DNA of 64,000 nt, taken from the NCBI GenBank assembly GCA_963674735.2, contig CAXXQS010000001.1, positions 928,001 through 992,000 of the forward strand, in the 5' to 3' direction. Both the position numbers and the translations under genes were made by a program. The notes under the pieces are model-generated. The model was given only the letters and a program-made list of their open reading frames with translations. It ran no database searches and had not been told where the DNA came from. Of this stretch, positions 318-27,160 are shown piece by piece (position 1 is the first letter of the stretch; every line of letters starts with the position of its first letter). The DNA is from Myxococcota bacterium. GTDB taxonomy: Bacteria; Myxococcota_A; SURF-8.

Positions 318-2000
318 TCAATTAAGGTCGTCCCAGTTTATCGGAGTGTAAGGTGCACTCGCATTGTCCACTACGGCTTGCTTGAATGCTGGATGAGCGG
401 AGAAATTATCACTGTCGAGCGCCTGGAAGTCCGCTTTGATTTTATCGAAACCTGCATCCTTTACATCGATTCGATAGCCAGGGTTTTCGGAAGGATGATA
501 AAGTCCCCAGGTGCTGGTGTCGGTATAATATTTCCATGTCCAAAACCCCCAGTGAATACCTCTTTCGTTCAGTCTTTCCAGTACGAGATCCATCCCTTCC
601 GCCGATACATCCGTATGTCCGTCATTTCCATCAGCCGCATTGAATTCGCCCAGGTATATCGGACATTCAAAGCGCTCAAAGGCGCGTCCGAATTCCATCA
701 GATCACGATCAATGTTGTTCAGATATTCTTGAGCCGTATCCCCACCTGGATAAAGGTGAAGGGAAAACATTGCGTTCTGCCAGCCCATTTCTTTGGGCGA
801 ACGGAGACTGGAAAGCGATTTGTATCCCTCTTCGATCATGATGATATGATTGGAGTCAACTTCGCGAATGGCTTGATAAATTCCGTTATGCACACTGGCA
901 TACGTTTCGACATTCGGCGACGCCATCGGTTCGTTCATCAGATTGAGTATGGCGATGTGCGGTTCGTCTGCGAAGTAAGTGGCGATTGCTTTCCAGAGCC
1001 GGGTGGTTTTATCGATGCAGTCTTGATTGGTCCAGAGAAAACCACCGTTTTCCAAGCCCTGGTGCCATGAGGTGCTTTGGCCGCCCGGTGTGCCATGCAT
1101 ATCGAGCATTAAATACACCCGATGCTTACGCGCCCACCCTACCAAGCGATCCAGGCGTTCCCAACCATCCGGCTTGAATGCGTTCTCACCTTCTTCATCG
1201 GTTTCGAGCGCCTCGTACCATATTGGAACACGGATCAGATTCAAACCCAGTTCCGCAACCCGTTGCACATCCAGTTCGGTGATGTAGTTGTCCTGGAACG
1301 TCCGACGCAATTCCAGGTAGTCGGCTTTGCCGAAACGAGCATCCAGGTGTTTCCACAAGGAGCGTTCCTCGTAAATCCAAGGCTCGGATTCGAACCAGGC
1401 CCAGAACTGATCCAAGCCGGGAAGGTCCTGCTCAGTTGCAATTTCATAGGTGTACGGCTTCCACTCCTGCATTAAACCCCAATGGGATTGAGACTCGATC
1501 AACCAATCAAATGCCGTCTGGTCGCGGGCGTTTTGAACCAATTCCGCTACGCCGTACTCCTCGGCCTTGATTGGAATCAGCTTGAGAAAATCCCACTCAA
1601 ACAGTAAGCCAACACCAGAGAGCCATGTTTCCATCATCATCCAGCTTCCGAAATTCACACCGCGCAGCATGATATTATTATCATCCTCATCAACAATGTC
1701 TGTTCCATCCACATGCAAAAACGGAAGTGTCGCAACTTCAGTTGGTGCTGGACGCACCGGAAAAGCCTGCGTGTTCGGCTGGCAATCCGCCCACTTTGTA
1801 TGATCGAGCGTGGCCTCCTCAAGATCGCCTTCGCCCACATCGTCGGAATCCCCATTGTTCTCAGCATCCGTTTCAAGGTCGCCATCGGGAACGTCCATGT
1901 CACCATCTGCCACCTGATCCTGACTGGTTGTGTTACATGCCGGTAACAGGAGGATCGTAAAAATAAACAGCCATGTCCAAAATACCGGAATTGCTCTCAT
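318..2000 (-). CDS. Glycoside hydrolase family 5 lipoprotein
   Basis: Lipoprotein-like signal (LLLPAC) and acidic DGD linker; motifs LRGVNFG, DMHGTPG, NEP (acid/base) and IYLGEF (nucleophile). Confidence 0.85.
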   Translation of the reverse strand: MRAIPVFWTWLFIFTILLLPACNTTSQDQVADGDMDVPDGDLETDAENNGDSDDVGEGDLEEATLDHTKWADCQPNTQAFPVRPAPTEVATLPFLHVDGTDIVDEDDNNIMLRGVNFGSWMMMETWLSGVGLLFEWDFLKLIPIKAEEYGVAELVQNARDQTAFDWLIESQSHWGLMQEWKPYTYEIATEQDLPGLDQFWAWFESEPWIYEERSLWKHLDARFGKADYLELRRTFQDNYITELDVQRVAELGLNLIRVPIWYEALETDEEGENAFKPDGWERLDRLVGWARKHRVYLMLDMHGTPGGQSTSWHQGLENGGFLWTNQDCIDKTTRLWKAIATYFADEPHIAILNLMNEPMASPNVETYASVHNGIYQAIREVDSNHIIMIEEGYKSLSSLRSPKEMGWQNAMFSLHLYPGGDTAQEYLNNIDRDLMEFGRAFERFECPIYLGEFNAADGNDGHTDVSAEGMDLVLERLNERGIHWGFWTWKYYTDTSTWGLYHPSENPGYRIDVKDAGFDKIKADFQALDSDNFSAHPAFKQAVVDNASAPYTPINWDDLN

Positions 2001-2012
2001 GTCATCATTCCT

Positions 2013-4301
2013 TTATTCTTCATTCGTGCTATGGACGGATTCACAAACGAACTCTGAAATATCAAAACCCCAGGCAAGCGGAGATTCTTGCCGCATTCCT
2101 ACAAGAACAGTCCGGTAATGCCCGCTATGGCTCGGTTGCCATTCCACAATGCTGTCGCCTGCATCCGCATCGGCTAAGCCAAACACAAAGAATTCGACCT
2201 CATCTTCACTTGGCGACCAGGTCCACTTCTCGTGTGTTACGCAGGTCTGCTCGGGCTGTGAAAACGATAAGGTTGTCACGTTTTGATCCGCTACGCGTAA
2301 GGCTCTTACAGCATCAAGCAACTTGGCAACCTTACCACTGCTAAACACAAAGCGATTCTCTATGCTATGTTCGCGAGCGTCTTCAGCCTTCAGCAGAGAG
2401 TCGTTACCTGATTCACCGCCCTGTTTTTCTGCCAAGGCCCGAAGAGCCCACAATCCCATTTCTCCTTCGTATTGGATCTTGAAAAGCGGGAAAGCCAGTT
2501 CATCAACCATGTCAGGCGCCAAGGCACTATGGTGAACTTCAGATCGGATTGCTGCCATGCGCCCGAACAGTGGCAAGAGGTCGAAAACCTCATCAAGATC
2601 CTGATCCGAATCGCTTTTCAATTTCTGAATTAGAGAATCGATTGCCGCTTCCAGTTTACGATGCCCTGTGTCTTCCTGCGCGTGACCATCAAAGAGTTCC
2701 ATGATGAAGCGAAGGGTGTCGATGTCGTTTTCATTGGAGTCATTTGGTCTGATCCCGCTTTGTCCTTCCCAATCAGACGCCATGTCACGCCCTTTTGGTG
2801 GTTCGTATTGTCCCGGAGCCTGCATAAACGTTGCAAAGCTTCCGAGACTCAAACGCGATAGCCCACCCTGAATGGAAGTGTTGTGCATGATGCCGGATAC
2901 TGCGGGTATCAGCGTCTCGTCCCGCCCGGAGAACGCGCCAAGCAGGATGCGTCCGGTAAAACCATCCCCACCATCATTCGCCCAGAAGTTGTCCCAGATC
3001 ACGGGCTTGTGACCAGTGGTATCCACGAATTCATCGAGGTCGGAGCCTGTCATGGTCAGGTTCGAGGTGCCCGGTCCCGTCCACATGATGGAAATGCCTT
3101 CGTCAAGATCCTGCAATGCATTCAGATAGTCGATGCCGTCCTCAAACATTCCGATGCGTTCGTCGCTATAAACCGTAGGAACGAACATCATTGTGATCGT
3201 CGGATTTAATATTTGCAGGTGAGCGAACAAGCGATTAGCAACCGAAACATGAATCGCGGCCATCTCCGCATCCACGGGATGCTCTGTATCGAATTCGATA
3301 TCATCCGCCAACAAGGCGATTCCACCGGCTCCCAGTTGGGTGAATTCGGTAGCCTTGTTCTTCAGAGTTTCATAATCCTCATCTTGAGACGCATCGAAAT
3401 CGATAAAAGGACTGATGCCGAAAAGGAAGGTGATCCGGGATGCCTCACTGTATTCAAACAAGTTCTGGAACCGGCTCTTTTCCGTTTCGGTGTAGGGTTC
3501 GCGCCAATTCCTACGATGCTTGTCGTCCCATTTCGGACAATACAGGTAAGTCCCAAGGCCGGTTTCAGCCATCCGCTCAATCATGGCATAGCGTTCGCCC
3601 CACGACCACGGAACACCATAGAAACCTTCAATCACACCGGATTGGGGAAATAAGGGACCAACAGTGTCTATTGGAACGTCCGGTTCAGACGGAATTGAGA
3701 ACTCAGGCACCCATGCATTGAGTGTCAAACGGCTCAACGAAACCGGCCCCTGGGTTTGAAACTGAAGTTGTATACATCCCGCACTGAAACCTGTGAGATC
3801 GTGATTCTCCCGAGCGTCCTCCCAAATCAAACTCTGCTTAACCTGGCCCTGACAGGCTTCTAAGAGGCTCAACGTAAGTTTAACAATTTCCCCTTCTACG
3901 GACATTGAAACGATGTCGAGGTCAACCTGCTCGTGAAGCCACGGCTGTAAATCGACTGTAAGAGTCGTCTCGCTGTTCTCTGGAATCTTCCAGGAAGTCT
4001 CGGGATTGTCGTCGCGAATGGTCGCGATGGCGTCCTGGCTTTCAACCGGCCATGGAAAGAAGTCTCGTTTCGTATCACTCGCCTCAAGGCGGCTGAAAGG
4101 AATGATGTCGATCAGAAACCGACTAGATCCGTCTTTCTCTAGGTCTGATTCTTCGTTATCTCCCTCAATGTGGTCGAGGTCGGAATCGCCATCAAATATG
4201 GGTGAATTCTGGGATTCACCAGCGTTGCAAGCTACCAACACCAAGCTAACCAAAGCGTAAAAGATGATGGCTAACCAATGCTTGATTCCAGTGAAAACCA
4301 C
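2013..4301 (-). CDS. GH84 beta-N-acetylglucosaminidase (O-GlcNAcase/hyaluronidase-like) lipoprotein
   Basis: LVAC lipobox; GVIEGFYGVPWS, YLYCPKWD, the catalytic DD pair in LLADDI, and IWDNF. Confidence 0.85.
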   Translation of the reverse strand: MVFTGIKHWLAIIFYALVSLVLVACNAGESQNSPIFDGDSDLDHIEGDNEESDLEKDGSSRFLIDIIPFSRLEASDTKRDFFPWPVESQDAIATIRDDNPETSWKIPENSETTLTVDLQPWLHEQVDLDIVSMSVEGEIVKLTLSLLEACQGQVKQSLIWEDARENHDLTGFSAGCIQLQFQTQGPVSLSRLTLNAWVPEFSIPSEPDVPIDTVGPLFPQSGVIEGFYGVPWSWGERYAMIERMAETGLGTYLYCPKWDDKHRRNWREPYTETEKSRFQNLFEYSEASRITFLFGISPFIDFDASQDEDYETLKNKATEFTQLGAGGIALLADDIEFDTEHPVDAEMAAIHVSVANRLFAHLQILNPTITMMFVPTVYSDERIGMFEDGIDYLNALQDLDEGISIMWTGPGTSNLTMTGSDLDEFVDTTGHKPVIWDNFWANDGGDGFTGRILLGAFSGRDETLIPAVSGIMHNTSIQGGLSRLSLGSFATFMQAPGQYEPPKGRDMASDWEGQSGIRPNDSNENDIDTLRFIMELFDGHAQEDTGHRKLEAAIDSLIQKLKSDSDQDLDEVFDLLPLFGRMAAIRSEVHHSALAPDMVDELAFPLFKIQYEGEMGLWALRALAEKQGGESGNDSLLKAEDAREHSIENRFVFSSGKVAKLLDAVRALRVADQNVTTLSFSQPEQTCVTHEKWTWSPSEDEVEFFVFGLADADAGDSIVEWQPSHSGHYRTVLVGMRQESPLAWGFDISEFVCESVHSTNEE

Positions 4302-4318
4302 GATATGCTGACTCCTTC

Positions 4319-5335
4319 TTATAAAATCGATTTCAACTTGCCAAGTAAATCCTCGGCCCGACCGGCATCCATTCTTTCGTGATGATAAATACCGTAGGGT
4401 AGTTGCGTCTCTCGGCTCAAGTATTCAGGGAGCGCTACTAGCGTCTGGATGATTTCCTTTTCCGTAACGCCTATCTGTTCCGGTTTATACCTAACTTCGG
4501 CTTTATCCAGGAAGGACTTAATTGGAGTAACATCCTGCTCCTGGTATAGCGCCGTTATTAAAATCGCCAAGGCAATCAATTCGCCGTGAATGTACGAGCG
4601 GTGGGTGATCGATTCCAGGCAGTAGGCGAAGTAGTGCTCCGAACCTTCTTCCGGGCGACTGTTACCATGCTCCTCGCATAAAGCCACTTCACCGACATAT
4701 AATTCCGAAATCAGCTTCAATCCTTCGTCATCACATGCAAGGATGGCTTCGGGCCTGGCAAGCAGACAATCTAGAAGCTTTTGAGATGCTTGTGCTATTG
4801 ATTCATTATAGTTTTCTGCGACGGTATCGGCTGCCAGTTTCCAGTCATGCAGGGCCGTGAAGATGGAAAGAACATCGCCGACTCCTGCGCGATTCAAGCG
4901 CCTTGGTGAACGTTTCAGCAGGTGAAAATCGATCAGCAGTTTGGCAGGAAGAATCTGGCCGACATAACGGACGTGATGATCGACACGAACACCGACCGCG
5001 TTTGTGAAAGCGGCATCGACACTTATAATGGACGGCATCAGAATCAAAGAGAGTTCTTTCATCCATGCGGCCATTTTCGCCGCATCGCAGGCAGACCCTC
5101 CGCCAATGCCGAAAACCGTTGATACTTCCGGCATGGACTCGATTTGCGCCCTCAACGGACCCTCTTCCATGGAATCCGGGGAGCCTACAAATTCAGGAGA
5201 AAAAGGGAAATCGTTCTCCACCAAATCCCAGGCTTCGGGGGCACAATAGACCGCGCATTTATTGAAATAGCTCGGGTTCAGAGTTTTCAATAACCGTTCG
5301 CCGTATATCGGTAACGCCTGTCCTCTGTCTAACAT
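4319..5335 (-). CDS. Glycerol-1-phosphate dehydrogenase-like (iron-containing ADH/DHQS superfamily) oxidoreductase
   Basis: GIGGGSACDAAK, SVDAAFT, GSEH and HGE metal-binding motifs. Start placed at MLDRGQ, which follows a GAAGGA RBS. Confidence 0.75.
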   Translation of the reverse strand: MLDRGQALPIYGERLLKTLNPSYFNKCAVYCAPEAWDLVENDFPFSPEFVGSPDSMEEGPLRAQIESMPEVSTVFGIGGGSACDAAKMAAWMKELSLILMPSIISVDAAFTNAVGVRVDHHVRYVGQILPAKLLIDFHLLKRSPRRLNRAGVGDVLSIFTALHDWKLAADTVAENYNESIAQASQKLLDCLLARPEAILACDDEGLKLISELYVGEVALCEEHGNSRPEEGSEHYFAYCLESITHRSYIHGELIALAILITALYQEQDVTPIKSFLDKAEVRYKPEQIGVTEKEIIQTLVALPEYLSRETQLPYGIYHHERMDAGRAEDLLGKLKSIL

Positions 5336-5751
5336 ATTCTGTCCTTCACGTTGAACACATAACCTGCTATTATGTCGGCATCTGCCAATTGGCAGTTGCT
5401 GTCGTTTAATAGCATTATAATGACTTCTATTCAAATGTTATTTGAAAAAGCGACATGATTTGAAGGTAGGCAATGCGGATTGAATTGCATTGGAAACGGG
5501 GGACCTTCTTAGCCGCAGGCTACCGGAAGTACCAACACCAATGATCGCAATTGAAAAGGTCGGTTCACCAGGGTGGATGATGTCTAACTGACGGTGGAAT
5601 TTGATATTGATAGTCGTACGGTCCATGTCGTTTCTATCTATGGGGTTTCCTTTCATTGTTTATCGTTATGTTATTGCACAGTTATTGTTGTCGCCAGTAT
5701 TGCCTCGTGGTATCTTTGCCTTACAGAATTCCAGGATGCAGGAGAGCATTC

Positions 5752-7212
5752 ATGTCGAGATGGTTTGTCATTACTGCCTCAGTTTTGTTTTCATTGGCAC
5801 TGTTAGCCTGTGGGAATGACTCAACTATCGGCTCTGCAGGCGATGACGATATTGTTCCGATCTATGATGGTGATTGGTCTGAAGCCGATTCGATCGATGT
5901 AGATGTTTTTTCTGATGGAGACTCTGAAGCGGATCTGGATAGCGAGAATATCGCACCCGACGGTGACCAACTGGATGGAGACGACGATCTATCTGACGGA
6001 GATGGGATCGACAGCGAGCAGGCGACCGATGGAGACGAGGAAACCGACGGAGATGTAGAACCAGACGACGATGCTGATACCGACACCGAACTATGCCCTG
6101 ACATGTGGGAAGGCCCGGCTCCGCCGGATTGTCGACAATGGGATTGTGAACTGCAACCTTGGCCGACCTGTTGGATCTGTGATCTTGTGGCAGATTTCAA
6201 CCAGAATGGTCTGTCCTGCAACTATTGCGACGATCAGTGCGAGTGTATCGAACCGCCCTGTTTGTGCCTGGACGGTGCTTGCGTTCCGGAAGAAGGAAGT
6301 GACGGTGATGGAGATGGATCGGAATTGGAATCCGATGATCCGGTAGACGGTGATTTCGAAATCGATGTGGATTTGAATGAGGGAGAGGGAGAAGGTACCG
6401 TTCATGCGGTGGAACGTATTGTCATCGCAGGCGATAGTTGGTCTTGTGGAATCGTCACCCCAACGCGAAGCATACTTGACGAACGTGGCTTTTCCGATGT
6501 TGAGATCACATTCTCGACCACCGCCGTTGCCGGATCAACAGCAGACGAATGGGTGAACAACCACGATAACAAATTACTGAAGCTTACCGCCGCATTGGAC
6601 GAGGAACCTCAAGCCGAACTACTAATGCTGGTCATCGGCGGCAACGATGTTAACGCCTCCATCTACAACGATGGTTTTGACGATATGTCGAATGGGCAAC
6701 GAAACGTGGTACTGGACAGTATCCGAGATGAAATTAGATCCATTGTCGATTTTGCTCGTCTCAATCGTCCCCATCTCAAAGTCGTTCTTGTTGGGTACGA
6801 CTATTTCCACTATCTCTTTCTCCAAGAATTCTACGGACTAGGGGATATGTTCCTGGACGAATACAACCTGGCATTCGTGGGATTGGGACTTCGAAAACTG
6901 GAGATTTCAAACCAGGTGACCAGTTGCTACTATGCCCATAATTATGGGGTGTTGCAGTATACTTTCGGCGACCGACCCCATCCGCCTTTCAACCTGCCAC
7001 TTTTCGAATACTCACCGGGGTACGTTCCTGCCCCAGGTGTTGCACCTGATTACACTCCCTTCCCAGGAGGGTTGTACCAGATCCCTTCGCCGCTGGACCA
7101 GATTCCAGATGGCATCCACCCCAGTGAAGAGGGGTTCACCGCCATCATGAATCATGTGTTTGACCAGGGGATGGAGAACGTATTGCTTGGGAACGACTGG
7201 GTTGCCCCCTAG
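5752..7212 (+). CDS. SGNH/GDSL hydrolase lipoprotein with acidic and Cys-rich linker
   Basis: LLAC lipobox, GDSW, GGND and DGIHP motifs; GGAG RBS upstream of ATG 5752. Confidence 0.8.
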   Translation: MSRWFVITASVLFSLALLACGNDSTIGSAGDDDIVPIYDGDWSEADSIDVDVFSDGDSEADLDSENIAPDGDQLDGDDDLSDGDGIDSEQATDGDEETDGDVEPDDDADTDTELCPDMWEGPAPPDCRQWDCELQPWPTCWICDLVADFNQNGLSCNYCDDQCECIEPPCLCLDGACVPEEGSDGDGDGSELESDDPVDGDFEIDVDLNEGEGEGTVHAVERIVIAGDSWSCGIVTPTRSILDERGFSDVEITFSTTAVAGSTADEWVNNHDNKLLKLTAALDEEPQAELLMLVIGGNDVNASIYNDGFDDMSNGQRNVVLDSIRDEIRSIVDFARLNRPHLKVVLVGYDYFHYLFLQEFYGLGDMFLDEYNLAFVGLGLRKLEISNQVTSCYYAHNYGVLQYTFGDRPHPPFNLPLFEYSPGYVPAPGVAPDYTPFPGGLYQIPSPLDQIPDGIHPSEEGFTAIMNHVFDQGMENVLLGNDWVAP

Positions 7213-7253
7213 AGGGGCGGTGCGGATAGACTGGGGCAAGAGTTGCTGTTTCA

Positions 7254-8081
7254 TCAATATTCTCCTTCTTGAGTAAATTCTTCAGGTGCGAAATAACCGT
7301 ATTCACCCAGCACTTGCAGCATCGACCATGGATCCACCGCCCGGCCATCGCCACCTAGGACGCCGTCCAGGATGGCCCAGAACTCGTCCAGGTCTCCCTG
7401 CCAGTCTTCGACCGCGTCGAGCAGGTCTGCAGCCTGATTGGGACTCAGGCCGACCAGTTGTAACTCGTTGAAGATGTCGTCGTCGGGCGGCATGCTGTTA
7501 GTACGTTGGCTGAAATTACGATCCAGACCAAAACCGAGGCCTAATTCTTCATCCGGCCAGACCAAACCCCAAGGCGCGGCGGGCGTGTGGACTTTGTCAC
7601 TCAGTTCTTTCTCCAGCGTTTCGTCGCGCTCCACACTGGCCAGGAAGCCGACCTTGATCTGATCGACGGTGATGCGCCACGGCGAGTACAGGTCCAGCCG
7701 GGCGCGGAAATGACCCTGTTTGTTCGTCACGATGCTGACCAGCCAGTCTCCGTTGTCCATCTGCTCGATGGTGTCGGCGTCTTCCGAGGACCAGAAGCAG
7801 TTCAGGTCAGCATGACTGTGAGCCCAGCAGCGCAGGTCGGACACGTCGTGACCAACCTTGACCAACTCCGTCATTAACGCGCCCATGCTTTCGCGGTCGG
7901 GCGAGGTATGGCTGTCGGTGCAGGTCTGCTCCGGTAAGAAGAACTTTACGATGACGATGGCGCCGCTGTCCTCGTCCTTCTCAATTACTCCGAAGCAGGA
8001 GAATTCACCCTTGGCCGCCTGCGTCCAGACGCGCAACTGCTTCTCCGCCTCACCCGACAGCAACACCTTCGGCGTCCGCAT
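7254..8081 (-). CDS. JAB/MPN+ (JAMM) metalloprotease, putative Ubl-processing/deconjugating enzyme
   Basis: Probable start MRTPKVLL at 8081. An upstream Glu (GEFSCFG) and an exact JAMM motif H-S-H-x7-S-x2-D (HSHADLNCFWSSED) are present. The first ~168 aa of the track ORF overlap the upstream gene and are probably not translated. Confidence 0.85.
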   Translation of the reverse strand: MRTPKVLLSGEAEKQLRVWTQAAKGEFSCFGVIEKDEDSGAIVIVKFFLPEQTCTDSHTSPDRESMGALMTELVKVGHDVSDLRCWAHSHADLNCFWSSEDADTIEQMDNGDWLVSIVTNKQGHFRARLDLYSPWRITVDQIKVGFLASVERDETLEKELSDKVHTPAAPWGLVWPDEELGLGFGLDRNFSQRTNSMPPDDDIFNELQLVGLSPNQAADLLDAVEDWQGDLDEFWAILDGVLGGDGRAVDPWSMLQVLGEYGYFAPEEFTQEGEY

Positions 8082-9579
8082 CGTCAGTTTCCGCTTCGTC
8101 TCCGTCGGCTCCGTCGTCTTGATCTTCTTCGTCTTCTTCATCTTCAACGGCCCAAGCGCTGCACTCGGATCGGTGTTCGCAGTCCGGGCATTCGGGTTCG
8201 TTTCGTTCACGGCAATTCTCCTCGCTTTCAGGGTGTAAGGCGCACCATTCGCGGTGGCACTGTAAGCATTCGTAGGGCCCGCCGTCGTTCCGGCAGTCGT
8301 CGCGCACATCGTCCAGGAAGGGGCAGCGCGCATCCCCGCAATCCAGGCAATCTCGCGGAGAGCTGTTGTCGAAGCAGCGGCTGTAACGCTCGTCCCAATA
8401 TGGGCAATCCCTGTCGGAGCAATCCGTGCAGGTGGCTTCGCCGCCTTCATAGCATTCCTCGTATTCGTCGTGCTCGCTGTCGAACCATTGCGTGTACGGG
8501 TCGAGCGGGTTGTAGGACAGCAGGAATTCGTCGAGCAGTAGCAACAGCGTCCCCCATTCGCGCTGCGCCATGAGCTTGTTGACATCGTCGCCGATGTTGC
8601 CCAGGCACGGTGAGCCTTCCGTGCTGATGTGTGGGTGGAAGTAGTTGGATCGCCACTCGTTGTTGCCGGCGGCCTCGAAGCGGATCAGTTCTTTGCCGGT
8701 CAACTCGATCCGGCAGCGGATGTCGCCCAGTTCCGACTCCACGCCCGAATCCGGGTCTTCGATCCGCACATCGGTATGCACGGCCACCAGTTTGCTGTCA
8801 GAAATCGAGATGGACTGGAAGCGTTCGCCGACGAGGGATTGCAACTGCTGGCTGATCCGCTTGACTGCACTCATCGTGCGTCCGCATTTCTCGTTGACGG
8901 CCAGACGGAGCAGACGTTCTTCCTCCCGCTGGCGCGCCAGCTTGCCCACGAGCTGATGGTACTGCCGGTTCAGTTCGAGCAGATTGGCCTCGTTGTCGCG
9001 GATGTCCTGCTGGGTGCGTTCCAGGCTCTGGCGGGAAAGTGCGCTGTAGAAGCTGCCGAAGCGGCGAGTGGTCTCAAGCGGATTGGGCGTCTGCATGGCG
9101 TTCCGGCAGGCGCAGTCGAAGCCGTCGCGGAAGATGCTCGTCAGCAGGGTGCGCTTGGCCCCGAAAGTGACTTCCAGACCGTTCTGGAAACGGATGCTGT
9201 TGTCATCGATGCGGGCGGTGTAGAGTGTTGAGCCGCTCAGCGTCCAGGCCCCATGTACGTACGGCACTTGGAGATCGGGACCGTGCTCCATTGGAAGCCA
9301 GCGCTTCCGGTCCTCATTCAGTAACTTGCGCTTCTCACCAGTCACCGCCGCGTTGACCGGAGCCATGTAGAAGCGGTAGTCGCCATCAAGCACCGTGACC
9401 TCGTATTCACGCGAAACAACCACTGTCATCACCGGGCCAAGCGTATACGCTGCATCCGACCGATCATCTTCTTTCACTTGGACGATGGGATGCTGGTCGG
9501 CGGGGAAATCGAGCAACCACTCCTGCATGAGCGCCCGAAGGATTTCCGGGATACGAGTGGTATCGTTAAGATGTTCCAT
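8050..9579 (-). CDS. E2/UBC-like conjugating protein with N-terminal coiled coil and C-terminal Cys-repeat and acidic tail
   Basis: FHPHISTEGSPCLG resembles the E2 HPN...G.ICL signature, with Cys at 8605-8607. It is followed by helices ending LLSYNPLDPY. Heptad-rich middle region; GAGGAG RBS; located between the Ubl and JAB genes. Confidence 0.7.
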   Translation of the reverse strand: MEHLNDTTRIPEILRALMQEWLLDFPADQHPIVQVKEDDRSDAAYTLGPVMTVVVSREYEVTVLDGDYRFYMAPVNAAVTGEKRKLLNEDRKRWLPMEHGPDLQVPYVHGAWTLSGSTLYTARIDDNSIRFQNGLEVTFGAKRTLLTSIFRDGFDCACRNAMQTPNPLETTRRFGSFYSALSRQSLERTQQDIRDNEANLLELNRQYHQLVGKLARQREEERLLRLAVNEKCGRTMSAVKRISQQLQSLVGERFQSISISDSKLVAVHTDVRIEDPDSGVESELGDIRCRIELTGKELIRFEAAGNNEWRSNYFHPHISTEGSPCLGNIGDDVNKLMAQREWGTLLLLLDEFLLSYNPLDPYTQWFDSEHDEYEECYEGGEATCTDCSDRDCPYWDERYSRCFDNSSPRDCLDCGDARCPFLDDVRDDCRNDGGPYECLQCHREWCALHPESEENCRERNEPECPDCEHRSECSAWAVEDEEDEEDQDDGADGDEAETDDADAEGVAVG

Positions 9580-9600
9580 ATCGTCTCCTCTAAAAATGCG

Positions 9601-9628
9601 AACGGCGGAAGGATTTCCCTCCGCCGCT
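9601..9628 (-). terminator. GC-rich hairpin between the Ubl and E2-like genes
   Basis: CGGCGGA-AGG...CCT-CCGCCG inverted repeat, followed by a weak T-rich stretch on the minus strand. Confidence 0.45.
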
Positions 9629-9650
9629 CTGGTCCCGACCTCCTTTCCGG

Positions 9651-9914
9651 CTACTGGTGGGTCGCCACGCCGCCGTCGACTTTCGGCGTCAGCGCGAGGA
9701 TGTCGCCATCGTCGGGCCGTTCGTGCAGCTGCGTGTGGACGCCATTCAGCGTGAGCGCGTAGCCCTGGCTGTCAAAACCCGCCGAGGTGAGGGCGTCGGC
9801 GCAGGTGGAGCCTGCCGGGACGGTGACCTGGCGCTGGCGACCGATCGAGACGACGGTGATGCGTATGCCGGGATTACGGGACTGGGACTGGTGATCGTTC
9901 TGGTTCTGGTCCAT
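9651..9914 (-). CDS. Ubiquitin-like (beta-grasp, ThiS/MoaD-type) protein, 87 aa, with di-Gly plus a 5-aa extension
   Basis: GGAGG RBS and ATG at 9914. The sequence IRITVVSIG...VTVPAGSTCADAL...LTLNG...DGDILALTPKVDGG-VATHQ fits the ThiS/MoaD pattern. Confidence 0.8.
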   Translation of the reverse strand: MDQNQNDHQSQSRNPGIRITVVSIGRQRQVTVPAGSTCADALTSAGFDSQGYALTLNGVHTQLHERPDDGDILALTPKVDGGVATHQ

Positions 9915-9958
9915 GATTTCCTCCTGGGATTGGAATGATGGGCGGTATTGCCCGGACA

Positions 9959-9982
9959 CAAAAACGCCGCCTCAAGGGCGGC
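9959..9982 (-). terminator. Hairpin plus T-tract between the SSB-like gene and the Ubl gene
   Basis: GCCGCC-TCAAG-GGCGGC stem-loop. The A run at 9960-9964 gives a T-tract on the minus strand. Confidence 0.5.
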
Positions 9983-10018
9983 TGCGGTCGATTACGTTGC
10001 TGTCGTGGACGGAGGCCG

Positions 10019-10783
10019 TTACTCGGCGCTATCGCCGTTCTCCTCGTCCCCGTTGGGCTGGATGACGCCGCGCAGATTCTCGAAGATCGTCTTGAACTGC
10101 CGAATCTCCAGTTCGTTGCAGTCTTCCTCCTTCGTCAGCTCCAACACGGCGTAGGTGCCGGTTGGCATGGTGAGCGAGAGCCGAGTTTTGGCGGTGAACA
10201 GCGGCAGGTCAGCGCGTTGGCCATCAGGGAGCTGAAGCTTGCCGAGAAAGTAGCGCGCCAGGTAGCGCTGAACGGGTTTGCGGCTGGTAGCCTTGGCGCG
10301 GATGATGAACGGATTGTTATTATCCAGGTCGATACCGAGCAGCGCATACACGATGTCGCAACTGGGGGCTGTGGGCTGTCCATTGCCATGCCCCCAAAGT
10401 CGGTGTGGGCAGGTGGCGCAGTCCACGACCTCTCCATCGGCGCGGACGCCTTCCACGCCATCATCCGAACGGCAGTGCTCGGTCATGCCGGAGGTCTCGC
10501 TGTAGGTGGCCCACCGTCGGGACTTCTTGATATGGAGCAGGACGCACGAAATCTCGTCCTTGGCTTCGCCGGTCAAGCTGTTGATGAAGATGTCTTTGGG
10601 TGCCCAGGAACCGTCCTGGAGCTGACGTCGGGCGTTGAAAGCATAGGAAGGGAGTGGCCGATCCTCATTGTCCAGATGCTCCAGAGCGCGAAGATCGGCC
10701 AACTCGGTGGCGAGAGACATAGGGATGGGAAGTTGGTGGTGGGCCTCGTTTGTTGCACTGACTACAGACGTGTCCGTTGTCAT
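10019..10783 (-). CDS. Phage-type putative single-stranded DNA-binding protein
   Basis: Strong AAGGAGG RBS. CRSDDG...CATCP...SC is a Cys cluster typical of phage SSB-like proteins, and there is an acidic C-terminal tail. Confidence 0.55.
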   Translation of the reverse strand: MTTDTSVVSATNEAHHQLPIPMSLATELADLRALEHLDNEDRPLPSYAFNARRQLQDGSWAPKDIFINSLTGEAKDEISCVLLHIKKSRRWATYSETSGMTEHCRSDDGVEGVRADGEVVDCATCPHRLWGHGNGQPTAPSCDIVYALLGIDLDNNNPFIIRAKATSRKPVQRYLARYFLGKLQLPDGQRADLPLFTAKTRLSLTMPTGTYAVLELTKEEDCNELEIRQFKTIFENLRGVIQPNGDEENGDSAE

Positions 10784-11504
10784 GGGAAACCTCCTTGAAT
10801 TTTGTAAGTGGAGTTGTCTGGAAATTATGGGATTCAAGCTGAAGAGTGGGCAGGATTCAGGTATAAGGTTGGTGAGGAATATTCAGATTATCTGGGCCGA
10901 CAACGACCACCTGGCTCGTAGCTACGTTATTGGCCTGACTATTTGGCTTATATCGTGTTCGACTGGATATTTTCAGAGAATATCAGGATGAGATAAATAC
11001 ACCCAGTAGAGGTGTATGAATATAATCCACCGAGTGCGAGCAAGGGAAGCCACCTCAATTCCCACCACCTTGGGTGTCCACCTGGAGGAGGTGTATTCAA
11101 CGAAAAATTGGCCAAGTTGGTACCGGACATTGCCTTTCACTACGGGGCCCCATAGCGATTTTCGATAGCCCTTCAAACCGGCGAGAAGACTAACGAAAAT
11201 CAGAAATTCCGTGCCGTTGGGTTCTCTTAGGGGCAGTTAGATGTTTACCAAAATAGGCCCTAATATGTACCCGGCTGGAAGCCCTCATAGGTTCAAAACT
11301 GCACAAACGAGGGGCCGTTGCACAATGGTACGACTCCTGCAAACTTAGCGATGGACTGGTTGGCCGCAACCATCGTCCTGCCAGGTTATCTGACTTGGGA
11401 TCGAACACCACGCAGCATGATTGGCGAGTTCCCTGATAGCTGATCCTACTGCGCCGCTTTTCGCCACCCATTCGTACAATTCAGCTTCCCAGCAGATATC
11501 ATAT

Positions 11505-12166: not shown

Positions 12167-13795
12167 CTACAAGTATCTGCTTAGGATGGACCATGTAGTT
12201 GACTCCGTGTCAAGCTGAATTCGTTCAGGATACGTACACCGGGCTTCACAGGCCGCCTTTAGGCGGAATCCTCCCAGCACCTCTTCGCTGGCTGATTCCA
12301 TGGCCTCAGCGCATGTGGCGATGGAGGTCCCCAGCTCTTCCTGTCGACATTCCACCCACAGGCTATCGTGCAACGACGCACACACGCGCAGCCCTGCATC
12401 CATGGCCAGTTGAATGGCGCGTCGTAGAATATCACTGGCCGTGGCCTGCAGCGGGAAATTGCGAATCGACTCATCAGACATCTCTTTGGTCGGAATCAGT
12501 CGCCAACCCATGGGAGTTGTGAGGAGTTCTCCACGGTGTACACGGTTCAGCAGGTCTTCGCTCCATTTCCAGTACACCGAGTATGTCTGTCTGTATGTTT
12601 CTATCATGTGTTTGGCCTCCGACTCATCGACATCCAGTTTCCTGGCCAGATTTCTTGCCCCAATTCCATATCCGATGGCCAGTAGTGCCAGTTTGAACCG
12701 TTTCCTCTCGGCTGGATAATCGTCTTTGCAGGCATTCTCGGGGACTGCTCTATTCTTTGCTCCAAATGCAAGATAAACATCACCGGAGCGATAATCTCTT
12801 TTCATCGACTCATCACCGGATAAGGCGGCAGCAATGCCGAACTCCTCAGCAGAAAAGTCAACGGAAAACATGGATCGGCCGGGTGGAGGTTTGATCAGCG
12901 AACGCAAGGGTTTCGCCCTGCACAAAATGGATTCCCAGCTGGGCTGGTTGCGCCCCGTTTTGCTCCTGAACAGGCCGGGTGAGGTTCGGTTGCGTCCGTC
13001 GGCGCCAACCACCACCGTGGAAATCTTTCCCTGATTGCGGATTTGCTCCACGTCTTTCAGCAATTCCAGTTCAGGATGCACTTTCGCCATCTCTTTCAAA
13101 TCGTCATAGTGAACGTCCGTTTCCCGTTTCCAATGCCTGGGAAAGGAATTGCTCTGGCTTCGCAGGTAGCTCTTGAACTTGCGAAGGGAGAGTCTTCCAT
13201 CAATGTAAACATCATACTGCTCGTTGGCTTCCTCTGTCAGCTCGGCCAGGATATCGGGCATCACCATTTGTAGTTTTTTCAAAGCCGTCATGTCCATTGG
13301 CAGACCGGCCTCTTGCATTTTGCGCGCATAGGGAAGAAAATGAGAATATTGTAGCACAATCTGAACCTCCCTGTCATCGTCACCCAGGCATGTCAGCAAT
13401 CGCTCCATATCAGCCAGGTACGAAAGGCCAATCCTGTCTTCCGACTGAGAGAGCTGATCGAAAGCAGCCAGTGCTTCGGGAAGAGATGTTTCACCCTTGT
13501 CCACCAAACCATTGCTGATCATTCGAAACCATAGGTGCAGATCGAGAATGGTTTCAGGAGGCGCCAGGCCAATCTGCCGTAAGCACAGAAGTTCCGGAAC
13601 ACCGTCAAACAGAACGAGCAGACTATCCGATGTCCATGGCGGATTCGTGCCAAGCATATCCTCAAATTCAAGGATTTGTGGAGCTTCTCCCATGACTTTG
13701 TGAAATAGCCTTTTGGGGATCGGAATATCTCCTGGTCGGCGCTGTTGGTCAAACACCAGAAAATGGATAGACGGATAGGCATCAAGAAACGTCAT
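12167..13795 (-). CDS. Family A DNA polymerase (mobile-element type, no 5'-3' exonuclease)
   Basis: TGRNQPS; motif A DFSAEEFGIAA; motif B RKRFKLALLAIGYG; RNFPLQATAS; motif C HDSL. Confidence 0.9.
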   Translation of the reverse strand: MTFLDAYPSIHFLVFDQQRRPGDIPIPKRLFHKVMGEAPQILEFEDMLGTNPPWTSDSLLVLFDGVPELLCLRQIGLAPPETILDLHLWFRMISNGLVDKGETSLPEALAAFDQLSQSEDRIGLSYLADMERLLTCLGDDDREVQIVLQYSHFLPYARKMQEAGLPMDMTALKKLQMVMPDILAELTEEANEQYDVYIDGRLSLRKFKSYLRSQSNSFPRHWKRETDVHYDDLKEMAKVHPELELLKDVEQIRNQGKISTVVVGADGRNRTSPGLFRSKTGRNQPSWESILCRAKPLRSLIKPPPGRSMFSVDFSAEEFGIAAALSGDESMKRDYRSGDVYLAFGAKNRAVPENACKDDYPAERKRFKLALLAIGYGIGARNLARKLDVDESEAKHMIETYRQTYSVYWKWSEDLLNRVHRGELLTTPMGWRLIPTKEMSDESIRNFPLQATASDILRRAIQLAMDAGLRVCASLHDSLWVECRQEELGTSIATCAEAMESASEEVLGGFRLKAACEARCTYPERIQLDTESTTWSILSRYL

Positions 13796-14930: not shown

Positions 14931-15360
14931 TCATGACTGCAAAGAACTTTGAATGAATTCTACAGCTCTTTTCCTGTGGACTTGTTTTTTCATCCGTGTG
15001 ATTGGCCGCAATCGCCGCTCGGTGACTTTCCGGAGGATGGCATTGTCATCACAGTTTTCCAGCCATTCGACGAAATCGGAAGGCAGTTCCAAGAGCCTTA
15101 TGTGATAGCAGACCTTGGCACGGCTCACTCCGAATTCTTCGGCCACATCCCTGTAGCTCTTGGAAGGTGAGCTTTGAAGAACCCTCTGGTATTGTCTCGC
15201 GATCAAGATTGGATTTCGAGCTGGCTCGATTGACTTTTTCTTGGGTGGATGCTTAAATGGTTCTTGCGAGAAGTTAGCAGCACCAGAGCGTCGCCTGAGA
15301 AACCACTGGAATTCCAATGGGATAGTTACACGGCCAACGGTGCTCTTTCTGTATGCTCCG
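14931..15360 (-). pseudogene. 5'-truncated HTH protein (recombinase-associated/ParB-like HTH remnant)
   Basis: NPILIARQYQ...SYRDVAEEFGVSRAKVCYHIRLLELP is an HTH. The upstream part of the track ORF is only antisense to the IS remnant. Confidence 0.5.
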
Positions 15361-15884
15361 GGGACACGCTGCATGGGCTTGTCCGCCACCACGTTCTGTT
15401 TGTTATCGATTTGGCGACTCGCCGGGTTCATATCGCTGGGATCACCAATCAGGCTCACTAGGAGTGGATGAAGCAGATGGTGCGGAATATGACTGACGCC
15501 TTCGATGGTTTTCTTCTGGACATGCGCTATCTCATTATGGACCGGGATCCTCTTTTTACCCCCGCTTTTCGCAAGATGTTGTCCGACAGTGGTGTCGATC
15601 CCGTGCGTCTTCCGGCCCACAGCCCGAATCTGAACGCCTACGCGGAAAGGTTTGTTTTATCAATAAAATCAGAGTGTTTAAACCGTATGATTCCGCTTGG
15701 TGAGGGCCATCTGCGCCGTGCGGTGTTCGAGTATGTCCGGTACTACAACGGAGAACGTTTCCATCAGGGCCTTGACGGCCAATTGATTGATCCGGATGCC
15801 ACCGCAGGGAAAAGCACGGGAGAGGTGGCGTGTCGCGAGCGTCTGGGCGGAATGCTGAAGTACTACTACCGGGAGGCGGCATGA
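15361..15884 (+). pseudogene. Integrase-core (rve, DDE) transposase remnant, 5'-truncated, with an internal stop
   Basis: VLFVIDLATRRVHIAGIT*...DRD...SPNLNAYAERFV...YN.ERFHQGL...RLGGMLKYY; in-frame TAG at 15459-15461. Confidence 0.8.
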
Positions 15885-16521: not shown

Positions 16522-16598
16522 TGGTCGGCGTGAGAGGATTTGAACCTCCGACCTCTTGGTCCCGAACCAAGCGCGCTACCAAGCTGCGCTACACGCCG
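16522..16598 (-). tRNA. tRNA-Pro(CGG)
   Basis: Reverse complement reads CGGCGTGTAGCGCAGCTTGGTAGCGCG-CTTGG-TTCGGGA-CCAAG-AGGTCGGAGGTTCAAATCCTCTCACGCCGACCA: 77 nt, with TTC loop and encoded CCA. Confidence 0.97.
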
Positions 16599-23000: not shown

Positions 23001-23129
23001 TCCGGCAAACGCAGCCACTGCGTAATAGAGCAGTTGGTCGGAGGAAAGCCCCAAAACCCAAACGGAAATGCCCAAAAAGGTCAAACCCGATAAAGCGCTG
23101 AATAAAAATGTCCGTTTCAATCCCGACAT
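20064..23129 (-). CDS. Membrane-anchored P-loop NTPase (STAND-like) with TPR array
   Basis: Two N-terminal hydrophobic helices, Walker A GEGGVGKT, Walker B LIVVDYAE, and C-terminal 46-aa TPR-like repeats. Confidence 0.8.
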   Translation of the reverse strand: MSGLKRTFLFSALSGLTFLGISVWVLGLSSDQLLYYAVAAFAGMVIGIAGSSFVAAFQEGKKVSDNTEDILDKRFKTWNANLPFDPKKHSLSRKLLVARHAIVPRFGRDDKIADVEAWCLRDEALSLWVVQGEGGVGKTRLYLEVMDLINTGKLRLKGNWQAAFLRDHATKRPGFAREFREILQLGHHFLIVVDYAETRPDEVRQLVEVLHDNAAGRRLRVVLICRRVSDWWQHLKAAVPEQMGQIFDLAPIKSHSALALPENERYSAFEQAIEAFKKKNLPIKQTDLAQPKLEKKHFERMLFIHIAALAWMDGQILENDGDLLQFVQQRERDVIQRKANSRGLDVETHASRLACLERAVALATLHGEIDDYEFLKQSMIILGEHTDIPNHLESAIEVLVDLYGEREQKRFSRLRGLEPDLIGEFWIEQVLATDEGQRVLEAAFSPQASERGVKQGITVLARIVRRNPAASAWLALAFAQDLTRLGRIGIEVALQEALPENDPSLSDPLGLALAQAFESTQNVEAAKALHSAFPLETVCLREAATATRQILLNHAKRTNNLEEAALYANNLAVRLGALGEPEKALDASLEAVEIYKELAQKRPDAFKPDLAMSLNNLSNRYSELGQREKALDASLEAVEIYKELAQKRPDAFKPDLASSLNNLSVFYSELGQREKALEAILEAVEIYKELAQKRPDAFKPNLASSLNNLSGCYSELGKREKALDAILEAVEIRKELAENRPDAFKPDLASSLNNLSNRYSELGQREKALEAILEAVEIYKELAQKRPDAFKPNLASSLNNLSNCYSELGKREKALEASLEAVEIRRELAQKRPDAFKPDLASSLNNLSARYSELGKREKALDAILEAVEIRKELAENRPDAFKPDLASSLNNLSARLTDVDRHQEAMDASLEAIDIRRELAQKYPDAFNPDLATSLFNISIDFEQFNRPEEAHDACKESLQIISPYFLALPQAYSNWIVDPLNRYLKLCNAIHRQPDVELIGPIIQKLIEIGAIEAPEESA
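20442..21386 (-). repeat. About 7 near-identical 138-nt tandem repeats encoding 46-aa TPR units
   Basis: ATTTCGACGGCTTCT recurs at 20521, 20659 and onward at 138-nt spacing. Confidence 0.95.
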
Positions 23130-23381
23130 TCGACCGCCTCTCTCAAACGATCCATCGCCAGCCCCGCTGTGATTGGCTTGTGTCACATCTTGCTGCGCTG
23201 TCCGGTTGTGGGGTAAGTGGCACCTACATGTATACGACATGATTGGTCGGGAATCAAGAAGTTCTTGTAACTATACGATATTGCGGATGTAATACGGAAC
23301 TCTCCACCCGCACGCAAAACGGCCGCCGGGGCGACCGTGGGGGAAATATGGGGTGGTTACGGGATCGCTAAGGGGCTGGAA

Positions 23382-26885: not shown

Positions 26886-27160
26886 GGACTTCTCTCCTTA
26901 TTCCGACGTTCGAAGATATTCCTAGCGGGTAACATTCATGTAAAGCGTGCTCACACGTTTTGGAAGGATTTTGCTTGTTACTCTCCATAATCGCGATTTA
27001 GCCTACTTTAGCGTCAATCGCCTGTCAAGTGGAATAGACGGTTCTCTCTTCGTAATAGATGGCAAGGTATTATCAACCTGGAACGGCGTGCAGGATTGCC
27101 TTTACAGCCGCTCTGTTCTCGGCTAGAAACAGAAGAACGGATTATGAGTGAGGAAGTGGC

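Follow-up and report, generated by a model that had tools for sequence, protein, structure and literature searches.

Three adjacent genes in a 64,000-nucleotide stretch of DNA from a Myxococcota bacterium (GenBank assembly GCA_963674735.2, contig CAXXQS010000001.1, positions 928,001 to 992,000 of the forward strand) probably form the core of a thioester-type ubiquitin-like conjugation cassette, carried on a phage-like, PolA-encoding integrative element beside a tRNA-Pro gene; we put the probability of this reading at about 0.7. The whole stretch is called the window below, and positions are counted from its first letter. The genes encode a small ubiquitin-like protein (Ubl), a large protein with a predicted ubiquitin-conjugating enzyme (E2) core and a putative JAMM metalloprotease. 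A preliminary description of this DNA had proposed a protein-modification system rather than a cofactor relay. That proposal is upheld by the predicted ubiquitin-conjugating (UBC) fold and invariant Cys of the E2-like protein, by the JAMM protein, by a Ubl that ends in Gly-Gly plus a tail, and by the lack of thiamine or molybdopterin synthesis genes among the window ORFs (open reading frames) scanned and in the related loci examined.

All three genes lie on the minus strand, and inspection of the open reading frames (ORFs) reproduced the coordinates first reported, including the 87-aa Ubl ending PKVDGG-VATHQ, the exact JAMM motif and a gene overlap that had been put at about 30 nt. The Ubl precursor (9651–9914, 87 aa) starts at an ATG at 9914, preceded by an AGGAGG ribosome-binding site, within a maximal ORF of 9651–9959. 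Its C-terminal end reads LTPKVDGGVATHQ, that is, LTPKVDGG followed by VATHQ, with the Gly-Gly codons at 9669–9674 and the five-residue tail at 9654–9668. The E2-like gene (8050–9579, 509 aa) contains FHPHISTEGSPCLG at aa 314–327; its motif begins at aa 315, and coordinate arithmetic places the codon of Cys325 at 8605–8607, as first stated. The gene for the JAMM/MPN+ metalloprotease (7254–8081, 275 aa) occupies the 3' part of a maximal ORF of 7254–8585; from the in-frame ATG at 8081 it shares 32 nt (8050–8081) with the E2-like gene, an ATG at 8141 being an alternative start. Its motif, WAHSHADLNCFWSSED, conforms to H-x-H-x7-S-x2-D and is encoded as HSH-x7-S-x2-D at 7779–7820.

A profile search of 1.84 billion representative sequences, clustered at 50% identity, recovered 1182 relatives of the E2-like protein at E ≤ 1e-3, 143 at E ≤ 1e-10 and 30 at E ≤ 1e-30. 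The part common to this family runs from about residue 170 to 365 and often reaches 490. The motif HP[HNQ]...C.G is carried by 141 of 148 representatives, with His as its third residue in 140 of the 141, and H315, P316, C325 and G327 are invariant in an alignment of 134 sequences. In 112 of the 141 motif-bearing members the spacing from His to Cys is 10 residues, the same as in canonical E2s. An AlphaFold2 (AF2) model of aa 228–480, built from the 134-sequence alignment, scored 91.2 in the predicted local distance difference test (pLDDT), with a predicted template-modelling (TM) score of 0.70. Its core is predicted to begin with a helix (H6–22), followed by four strands and then helices, in the order α1, four-strand meander, Cys loop, α2. 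When this model was compared with the PDB by Foldseek, E2-containing entries (UBE2L3, UBE2D, E2-25K, UBE2L6 and others) made up 45 of the 47 matches listed, at probabilities of 0.80–1.00 and with the top match at E = 3.5e-3 and probability 0.99; the remaining two listed were CorA, and there was no bacterial E2 among the listed PDB matches of the core. The family profile, run against PDB sequences, also placed UBE2L3 at the top (E = 0.0023), in an alignment that spans α1 and the meander and sets HPHV..G.PCL on HPNI..GQVCL. Judged by the features of the UBC superfamily, the core has the predicted fold and an HPx motif with a downstream Cys, and it does not match the curated sequence model. These results support, with moderate statistical strength, a UBC fold and active site in the E2-like core; the fold had been anticipated for the HPH...C domain, and the structural comparison, with E2s as its best matches at moderate significance, agrees. 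A full-length model made with an alignment of 11 sequences reached a pLDDT of 63, and less than 50 in the active-site loop; it was superseded by the 134-sequence model of aa 228–480, as was the Foldseek search made with it, in which E2 and coiled-coil matches were mixed at E values of about 0.1–0.7.

The core (aa 228–371, 8467–8898), which holds HPH at 8629–8637 as well as Cys325, makes up less than a third of the protein. It is preceded by an N-terminal domain (aa 1–135, 9175–9579) that is lineage-specific, occurring in the Myxococcota group only, and by long helices (aa 139–227, 8899–9165) predicted in the low-confidence full-length model. Four Cys4 repeats follow the core (aa 376–473, 8161–8454), with an acidic tail after them; they have the form C-x7-8-C-x2-C-x4-C and lie at aa 376–392, 402–419, 429–446 and 456–473. 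Among the 141 motif-bearing representatives, 66 have 15–19 Cys residues after the motif and 42 have 0–2; the Cys-rich module of the family is common yet optional. The region gave no meaningful sequence match in Pfam or, by phmmer, among PDB sequences. We propose that the repeats may bind metal (Zn or Fe-S) and take part in target choice. The E2-like protein as a whole matched nothing in Pfam, NCBIfam, PADLOC or PHROGs, and its four sub-domains, searched singly, matched nothing meaningful in Pfam. The initial impression that its architecture fits no known type therefore stands, no library family having been matched.

The JAMM protein has the zinc-site pattern E...H-x-H-x7-S-x2-D of MPN+ proteases, and none of its residues E26, H88, S89, H90, S98 and D101 varies among the nine copies compared. 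A profile of the family, run against PDB sequences, matched Rpn11/CSN5-type MPN+ proteins in 19 of 20 cases, with the Rpn11-like 6fjv at the top (E = 0.0011). The window copy itself had no match in Pfam, NCBIfam, PADLOC or PHROGs, nor did its C-terminal ~110 aa match Pfam, while a distant orthologue (locus L008, below) matched PADLOC JAB models at E = 4.5e-12.

For the Ubl the sole library signal is a sub-threshold match to Pfam ThiS (E = 5.8e-4); PADLOC, PHROGs and NCBIfam gave none. A profile of eight copies, from the window and seven loci, found PF1061 (E = 1.4e-5) and SAMP2 (E = 2.4e-5) among PDB sequences, both of them GG-ended beta-grasp proteins. The Gly-Gly is invariant in all eight copies, and at least one residue follows it in each: the tails, of 1–10 residues, are VATHQ, AVAHQ, VVVNQ, VAFHQ, VMLHR, C, C and VVTGIEISRE. 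A constant Gly-Gly with a variable tail is the pattern expected of a precursor that would be trimmed to expose the Gly-Gly. The protein thus has the C-terminal Gly-Gly of a beta-grasp modifier together with the predicted fold, the latter seen only as the partner (pLDDT 86–88) in a co-fold of the E2 core (aa 228–377) with mature Ubl (aa 14–82). That co-fold, which the preliminary description had suggested as a check, scored 0.49, the highest-scoring of three controls reaching 0.03; the runs shared at least 96% of their contacts, and partner pLDDT was at least 86. In the calibration of the tool, 58 of 80 solved complexes attained the mark, as did 2 of 110 mismatched pairs; among those that attained it with a score of 0.60 or below were only 7 of the 80 solved complexes, but both of the mismatches. 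The co-fold lends weak support to a pairing of the E2 core with the Ubl, and it may reflect likeness rather than binding, because E2-ubiquitin complexes are well represented among solved structures.

Eight related loci, from five assemblies, came from one scan of GTDB genomes, for a family that has 1182 representatives. Three of them (L001–L003) are diverged copies on one Myxococcota chromosome, two (L005 and L006) belong to one Myxococcales metagenome-assembled genome (MAG), and L004, L007 and the distant L008 complete the set. The E2-like and JAMM genes adjoin in 8/8 loci and the Ubl gene is present in 7/8 (all except L007), so that the co-occurrence by which the preliminary description could be checked was observed. 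A gene upstream of the cassette, here named p272, is found in 6/8 loci by tblastn, and a ThiF-type activating enzyme (E1) gene follows JAMM in two (L004 and L008). The nucleotide similarity of the window to L001–L003 (79–82%) is confined to 7290–10732, from p272 through JAMM; in L002 the order p177-PolA-p229...p272-cassette is that of the window. L007 reads integrase, two ORFs, primase, E2-like, JAMM. L008 reads Ubl, two tandem E2-like paralogues (664–3407; mutual identity 41%), JAMM and a 220-aa ThiF-family protein. The L008 contig is labelled Gammaproteobacteria, while a Parcubacteria-group MAG is also given as a source of these proteins; a mobile element or phage assigned to the wrong bin may account for this. 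In L005, 8.7 kb (1256–9765) separate the Ubl and E2-like genes and encode caspase-domain (Peptidase_C14), FGE-sulfatase/Lcl_C and DUF4384 proteins. A SIR2-TPR protein is encoded 3' of JAMM in the same locus.

The ratio of nonsynonymous to synonymous substitution rates (dN/dS) between the window and L001–L004 (and, for JAMM, also L007) is 0.12–0.16 for the E2-like and JAMM genes and 0.19–0.31 for the Ubl gene; against the distant L005 and L006 it is 0.28–0.44. These values point to purifying selection on the Ubl, E2-like and JAMM genes.

The preliminary description had missed both the cognate E1 of two relatives and a remnant of it in the window. Directly 3' of JAMM, L004 encodes a ThiF-type E1 of 235 aa and L008 one of 220 aa. 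Both match ThiF only and consist of a single domain with no rhodanese domain, the best-scoring models being ThiF and MoeB, and a segment LPCT[AR]RA is common to their C-terminal halves. In the window a 72-codon ORF (5438–5656, minus strand) contains, in codons 1–41 (5519–5641, including GxGxxG), a match to the L004 E1 of 61% identity over 41 aa (E = 1.3e-11, tblastn); the remainder of the gene is gone, and the cassette of the window is therefore incomplete. A hidden Markov model (HMM) of the E1, run over the six-frame ORFs of the window and the loci, matched only L004, L008 and window 5441–5659 (E = 1.8e-10). The remnant is separated from the JAMM gene by a plus-strand gene (5656–7212) for a 518-aa lipoprotein-like, Asp/Cys-rich protein with a GDS(W) motif, which has no counterpart in the eight related loci. 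A trio that lacks a nearby E1 could draw on an E1 in trans, could act independently of E1 or could reflect recent loss.

These observations led us to a model in which the 87-aa Ubl would be made as a precursor from which the JAMM protease would cut off the variable tail, exposing the Gly-Gly; the same protease may later reverse conjugates. A small single-domain ThiF-type E1, as in L004 and L008, would then adenylate the Ubl C-terminus, and Cys325 of the E2-like protein would receive the Ubl in thioester linkage. Target selection would fall to the variable N-terminal domain of this protein, its long helices and its four Cys4 repeats, making it a combined E2/E3. All biochemical steps, the part given to the Cys repeats and the biological role of the cassette are inferred. 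As only a remnant of E1 is present in the window, conjugation there would need an E1 in trans or would fail to occur. We think it likelier that the cassette works for its own element, through modification of element or host proteins around replication, than that it is host defence cargo.

Two terminator-like hairpins bracket the Ubl gene, both on the minus strand. The first (9600–9629), between the Ubl and E2-like genes, has a 13-bp G+C-rich stem followed by a U-tract; the second (9966–9982), with a T-run, lies upstream of the Ubl gene. The stem and U-tract at 9600–9629 are kept in 6/6 aligned loci (window, L001–L004 and L006), and the stem is mostly invariant, which makes covariation uninformative. 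A scan for terminator-like sites found 5, as against a mean of 5.6 in shuffled sequences, which is no excess. By bracketing the gene, the hairpins may raise the ratio of Ubl to enzymes.

Upstream of the cassette lies p272 (10019–10837, minus strand; 254 aa if read from the ATG at 10783), its conserved, phage-associated neighbour. This 272-aa gene had been called a phage-type single-stranded DNA-binding protein, a label that was not confirmed: it has no match in Pfam, NCBIfam or PADLOC, matches only PHROG 23155 (a family with no assigned function), and its profile found no relative among PDB sequences. Its 16 close homologues bear only the source label 'hypothetical protein', its nearest Atlas clusters are 92–97% viral, and it shows a weak match to gp63 of a Tunturiibacter phage, labelled 'primase' and encoded beside an exonuclease. 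Upstream on the same strand the order is p272, a 229-aa protein with a weak MarR-type helix-turn-helix (HTH), PolA, two small proteins, a ParB-like HTH protein and an rve_3 fragment. The family A DNA polymerase (12167–13795, minus strand, 542 aa) matches Pfam DNA_pol_A at E = 2.1e-27 and phrog_17 at E = 1.6e-39, and it bears out the preliminary claim of carriage on a DNA-polymerase-encoding island, here an integrated element. In this protein the polymerase domain alone was matched, with no exonuclease-domain match, and there is also a match to the PADLOC model 'RTasPolA' (DRT) at E = 3.8e-23, weaker than that to phrog_17. The rve_3 integrase-core fragment (15468–15884, plus strand) overlaps the 5' part of the ParB-like HTH ORF (14931–15620, minus strand) near tRNA-Pro (CGG), and suggests a remnant of an insertion sequence at the far end of the island. 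The tRNA gene itself, found by ARAGORN at 16522–16598 on the minus strand, forms the far flank; as for an attachment (att) site, no exact repeat of at least 12 nt of the tRNA-Pro region occurs elsewhere in the window. The GC content is 0.61 over 8–10 kb, as against 0.48–0.54 in the flanks. In our reading the loci are phage-like integrative elements of one family, whose member in the window is eroded. Outside the island, three overlapping ORFs in different frames at 27096–28318 (plus strand) encode an AAA domain, AAA_assoc_2 and an unassigned part, and look like a RarA/MgsA-type ATPase gene that is frameshifted or affected by sequencing errors. A few kb from the island, a gene at 20064–23240 (minus strand) encodes a 1058-aa nSTAND_NTPase5 + TPR protein and adjoins genes for a TPR protein and an M14 carboxypeptidase.

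Several comparisons associate the E2-like family with viruses. In the Atlas, the clusters nearest to it consist of unnamed proteins of 472 aa (73% viral) and 541 aa (67% viral), and a Foldseek search of BFVD gave three matches at E ≤ 1e-3, all unnamed viral proteins of 474–522 aa. Weaker BFVD matches included 'CrAss-like virus' (E = 7.8e-3), 'uncultured phage cr128_1' (probability 1.00, E = 0.082) and the E2 of African swine fever virus. By tblastn, four E2-like proteins found no match in 50,697 phage records, two found none in plasmids, and the L008 JAMM found none in the phage collection. Relatives of the L008 E1 occur in 85 phage records (29 Flavobacterium, 29 Bacteroides, 13 uncultured, and others), and phage loci were viewed for two of these, cr111_1 (Crassvirales) and Flavobacterium phage FpV4, and for Bacteroides phage crAss001. 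In all three, ThiF is preceded by a 414–423-aa protein with an exact H-x-H-x7-S-x2-D, whose gene overlaps the one before it by 56–125 nt. That preceding gene encodes 420–444 aa with [LM]HSH and then a downstream Cys, followed by x-Gly in cr111_1 and crAss001, and the next gene upstream encodes 211–289 aa, of which the first ~90 residues end in K-[IV]-[KR]-S-G-[AG]. The gene sets (L010, 3782–7657; L011, 3595–7606; L013, 1495–5905, crAss001 gp79–gp76) adjoin a primase and a uracil-DNA glycosylase in the three phages, and no integrase was seen in the stretches viewed. In hhalign comparisons the E2-like family aligned with the three phage proteins at P = 2.7e-4 and a probability of 41%, from the meander through the HxH...C.G loop into the helix after it, and with two phage sequences at P = 1.9e-3; an HMM search with the family found no match to the phage 'X' proteins of L010 and L011. 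The Ubl-like N-termini of the phage proteins, compared with the Ubl profile, gave E = 0.5 and 0.13 and are not supported as relatives. The crAss-like and Flavobacterium phage gene order that resembles the cassette is a lead with weak statistical support. A wider proposal can be built on it, namely that the cassette is a member of a large, mainly phage-borne ubiquitination-like system in replication modules, acting on host or phage proteins, which may reach the crAss-like gut phages (crAss001 gp79–gp76) and may work free of E1 by transpeptidation at the bond between Gly-Gly and tail; we regard this proposal as speculative and rather improbable.

The cassette matches none of Bil, Bub, CBASS Cap2/Cap3 and PRTRC, and its E2-like family has no match in Pfam, NCBIfam, PADLOC or PHROGs. 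The closest parallel is with Bil, and class 6d of Iyer et al. 2006 is presumably what is called Bil today. In that source (PMC1779556), the class 6d operon (Ubl-JAB-E1-E2) is described as having an E2 without the classical His and with a conserved His after the Cys. Bil itself is said in PMC11601596 to comprise a Ubl, an E2, a JAB and an E1 with no separate E3, its E2 being proposed to choose the target. Bil systems are described as shielding the host from phage through the tagging of a phage structural protein. The gene types common to the cassette and Bil are those for a Gly-ended Ubl, an E2, a JAB/JAMM and an E1, and neither has a separate E3. In contrast to Bil, the E2 here, at 400–500 aa, is about three times larger, its additions being an N-terminal domain, the long helices and the four Cys4 repeats. 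The classical HPx His, which class 6d E2s are described as lacking, is invariant in it; the contrast with BilB is drawn from published descriptions. The E1 of the relatives is one small ThiF domain (220 and 235 aa), and the window has a remnant only, whereas Bil is described in the same account as having IAD-AAD-CYS. Finally, Ubl, E2-like protein and JAMM have no PADLOC match, and their context is the replication module of an element. Eukaryotic E2s such as UBE2L3 and UBE2D are the top structural and profile matches, and share with the E2-like protein HPx, a Cys ten residues after the His and then Leu-Gly/Asp, as well as the order α1, four-strand meander, Cys loop, α2. They differ in that 140 of 141 members here have HPH rather than HPN, the family falls below Pfam UQ_con, and its core sits inside a far larger protein, the genes for which occur in bacteria, mobile elements and phages. 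Bub is likewise a bacterial operon with Ubl, E2 and E1, to which Type I adds a JAB (PMC11601596). It is described there (6E/DUF6527) as using oxyester intermediates, with an E1 and an E2 that lack a catalytic Cys and with DUF6527 as a serine protease. Here Cys325 is invariant and no DUF6527 match was found among the window proteins scanned, and on these two grounds Bub is excluded.

CBASS Cap2/Cap3 and E2-only CBASS also pair bacterial E2-fold and JAB proteins; the E1s of the relatives match the E1 portion only of PADLOC E1-E2 models, and the L008 JAB matches the JAB model. One report describes a bacterial E2 of E2-only CBASS that works without E1 (10.1101/2022.05.25.493364). In contrast to CBASS, the E2 here is not fused to E1, a free Ubl rather than a cyclase C-terminus would be the modifier, and no CD-NTase (cGAS/DncV-like nucleotidyltransferase) or effector was found in the window ORFs scanned; CBASS is excluded because there is no CD-NTase. 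PRTRC is a ParB-related, ThiF-related cassette of mobile elements. It resembles the present case in being borne on mobile elements and in having a ThiF-family protein, and a ParB-like protein is encoded on the same island. The E1s of the relatives nevertheless score 39–43 bits, as against the NCBIfam cut-off of 144.75 for PRTRC_ThiF, and no window protein matches PRTRC models; PRTRC is excluded because these NCBIfam cut-offs are not reached. We know of no E2 in sampylation, whereas here the E2-like protein is the most conserved component. The archaeal SAMP/UbaA/HvJAMM1 system is otherwise similar in its ThiS/MoaD-like Ubl with Gly-Gly and in a JAMM that reverses conjugates (PMC4443979), and SAMP2 is among the top Ubl matches. 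ThiS/MoaD sulfur-relay operons differ in gene content, since an E2-like gene adjoins the Ubl gene here and neither the window nor the loci examined contain thiazole or molybdopterin synthesis genes, and a relay of this type is excluded on account of the E2 and the gene context. Our literature search, which covered mostly open-access papers, found no description of the E2-like family or of a Ubl system in crAss-like phages, and an earlier description is therefore possible.

A number of observations count against the interpretation as a conjugation cassette on an integrative element. Pfam UQ_con and Prok-E2 models matched neither the full protein (E ≤ 0.1), nor the core alone (E ≤ 10), nor any of 58 relatives (E ≤ 1e-3). 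With the single sequence, the E2 match in the PDB reaches only E = 2; the best Foldseek E value is 3.5e-3, with none at or below 1e-3, and TM scores normalised to the target are 0.37–0.51. Calibration of the co-folding tool rates its support as weak, and L007 holds E2-like and JAMM genes with no detectable Ubl. E1 is absent within 10 kb in 6/8 loci and reduced to a remnant in the window, leaving the relay incomplete in most copies. The island is degraded, with no integrase other than the rve fragment and with the opposite-strand lipoprotein gene splitting JAMM from the E1 remnant, and dN/dS averages past selection and is no proof that the window copy works.

The last of these points bear on whether the window holds a decaying relic, in which a cassette that was functional in the ancestral element would now be inert, its E1 destroyed, its island eroding and its intact ORFs a sign that the loss is recent. 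This account would explain an E1 reduced to 41 matching codons, an unrelated opposite-strand gene between it and JAMM, an rve_3 fragment in place of an integrase and the lack of an att-like repeat of the tRNA region in the window. The three ORFs are intact, however, with every catalytic residue kept, and dN/dS is 0.12–0.31 against the close copies. Moreover, six of the eight loci have no nearby E1 and yet keep intact E2-like and JAMM genes, five of these six with the Ubl as well, which argues that loss of the E1 in cis is tolerated rather than fatal; we consider the relic less likely than not. The same six loci, together with the remnant in the window and the purifying selection on Ubl, E2-like and JAMM genes, could also be taken to mean that no E1 is needed. 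The Cys of the E2-like protein would then attack the bond between Gly-Gly and tail, in the manner of a sortase or of E2-only CBASS, forming a thioester without ATP or E1. Such an attack would explain both why at least one residue after the Gly-Gly is kept in every Ubl copy and why E1 is dispensable. It has a precedent in the E2-only CBASS enzyme, reported to process the C-terminus of its substrate, link it to Cys and ligate it to Lys (10.1101/2022.05.25.493364; PMC12948482). Against it, the two most complete loci carry an E1 right after JAMM, and the JAMM protein is already available for removal of the tail, so that we think E1-independent conjugation quite unlikely in this system.

Two further alternatives concern what the cassette is for. 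It could be anti-phage defence cargo of the Bil type, tagging the proteins of competing phages and thereby protecting the host. The four gene types are those of Bil (Ubl, E2, JAB and E1), and in L001–L003 and L006 the cassette lies at the edge of the element beside host genes, a common position for cargo; in L005, genes for caspase-domain and FGE-sulfatase-domain proteins stand between Ubl and E2-like. Yet PADLOC has no match for Ubl, E2-like protein or JAMM, the HPx His described as lacking in the E2 of Iyer class 6d is kept, and the E1 is a single ThiF domain of 220–235 aa rather than the tandem IAD-AAD-CYS of Bil. The conserved neighbours are also of the replication type (p272, primase and PolA), and a possibly related gene set sits in phage replication modules, with no integrase seen in the stretches viewed; defence cargo therefore appears unlikely to us. 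Alternatively, Ubl and E1 might form a thiocarboxylate relay like that of ThiS, MoaD or TtuB, for cofactor synthesis or thio-modification of nucleic acids, with JAMM only maturing the carrier. The Ubl is indeed nearest to ThiS/MoaD-type beta-grasps, ThiF and MoeB are the top-scoring models for the E1s of the relatives, and the genes sit among nucleic-acid metabolism genes. But an E2-like protein with an invariant predicted catalytic Cys always adjoins JAMM, with the Ubl alongside in 7/8 loci, and the relatives' E1s have no rhodanese domain. The preliminary description had proposed a search of the neighbourhood for thiamine, molybdopterin and cysteine synthesis genes as a check. Neither the window ORFs scanned nor the loci examined included any gene for thiazole, molybdopterin or cysteine synthesis or for tRNA thiolation, and a sulfur carrier is very improbable.

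If, as we think probable, the trio is the core of a conjugation cassette, it would widen a small field. To our knowledge, bacterial ubiquitin-like conjugation is known from few operon families (CBASS Cap2/Cap3, Bil and Bub), all seen as host defence. The cassette would add an E2 with a eukaryote-type HPx...Cys site, housed in a large protein with possible target- or metal-binding domains, and would pair this large E2 with the smallest kind of E1, on mobile elements and apparently phages. Should it serve phages in replicating themselves or in countering defences, it would be a phage-side ubiquitin-like system, of which we know none and the literature search revealed none. Since the E2-like family has 1182 unnamed representatives, the function of one member would annotate many genes, and if the link to crAss-like phages is true, cultured model phages would be at hand for tests.

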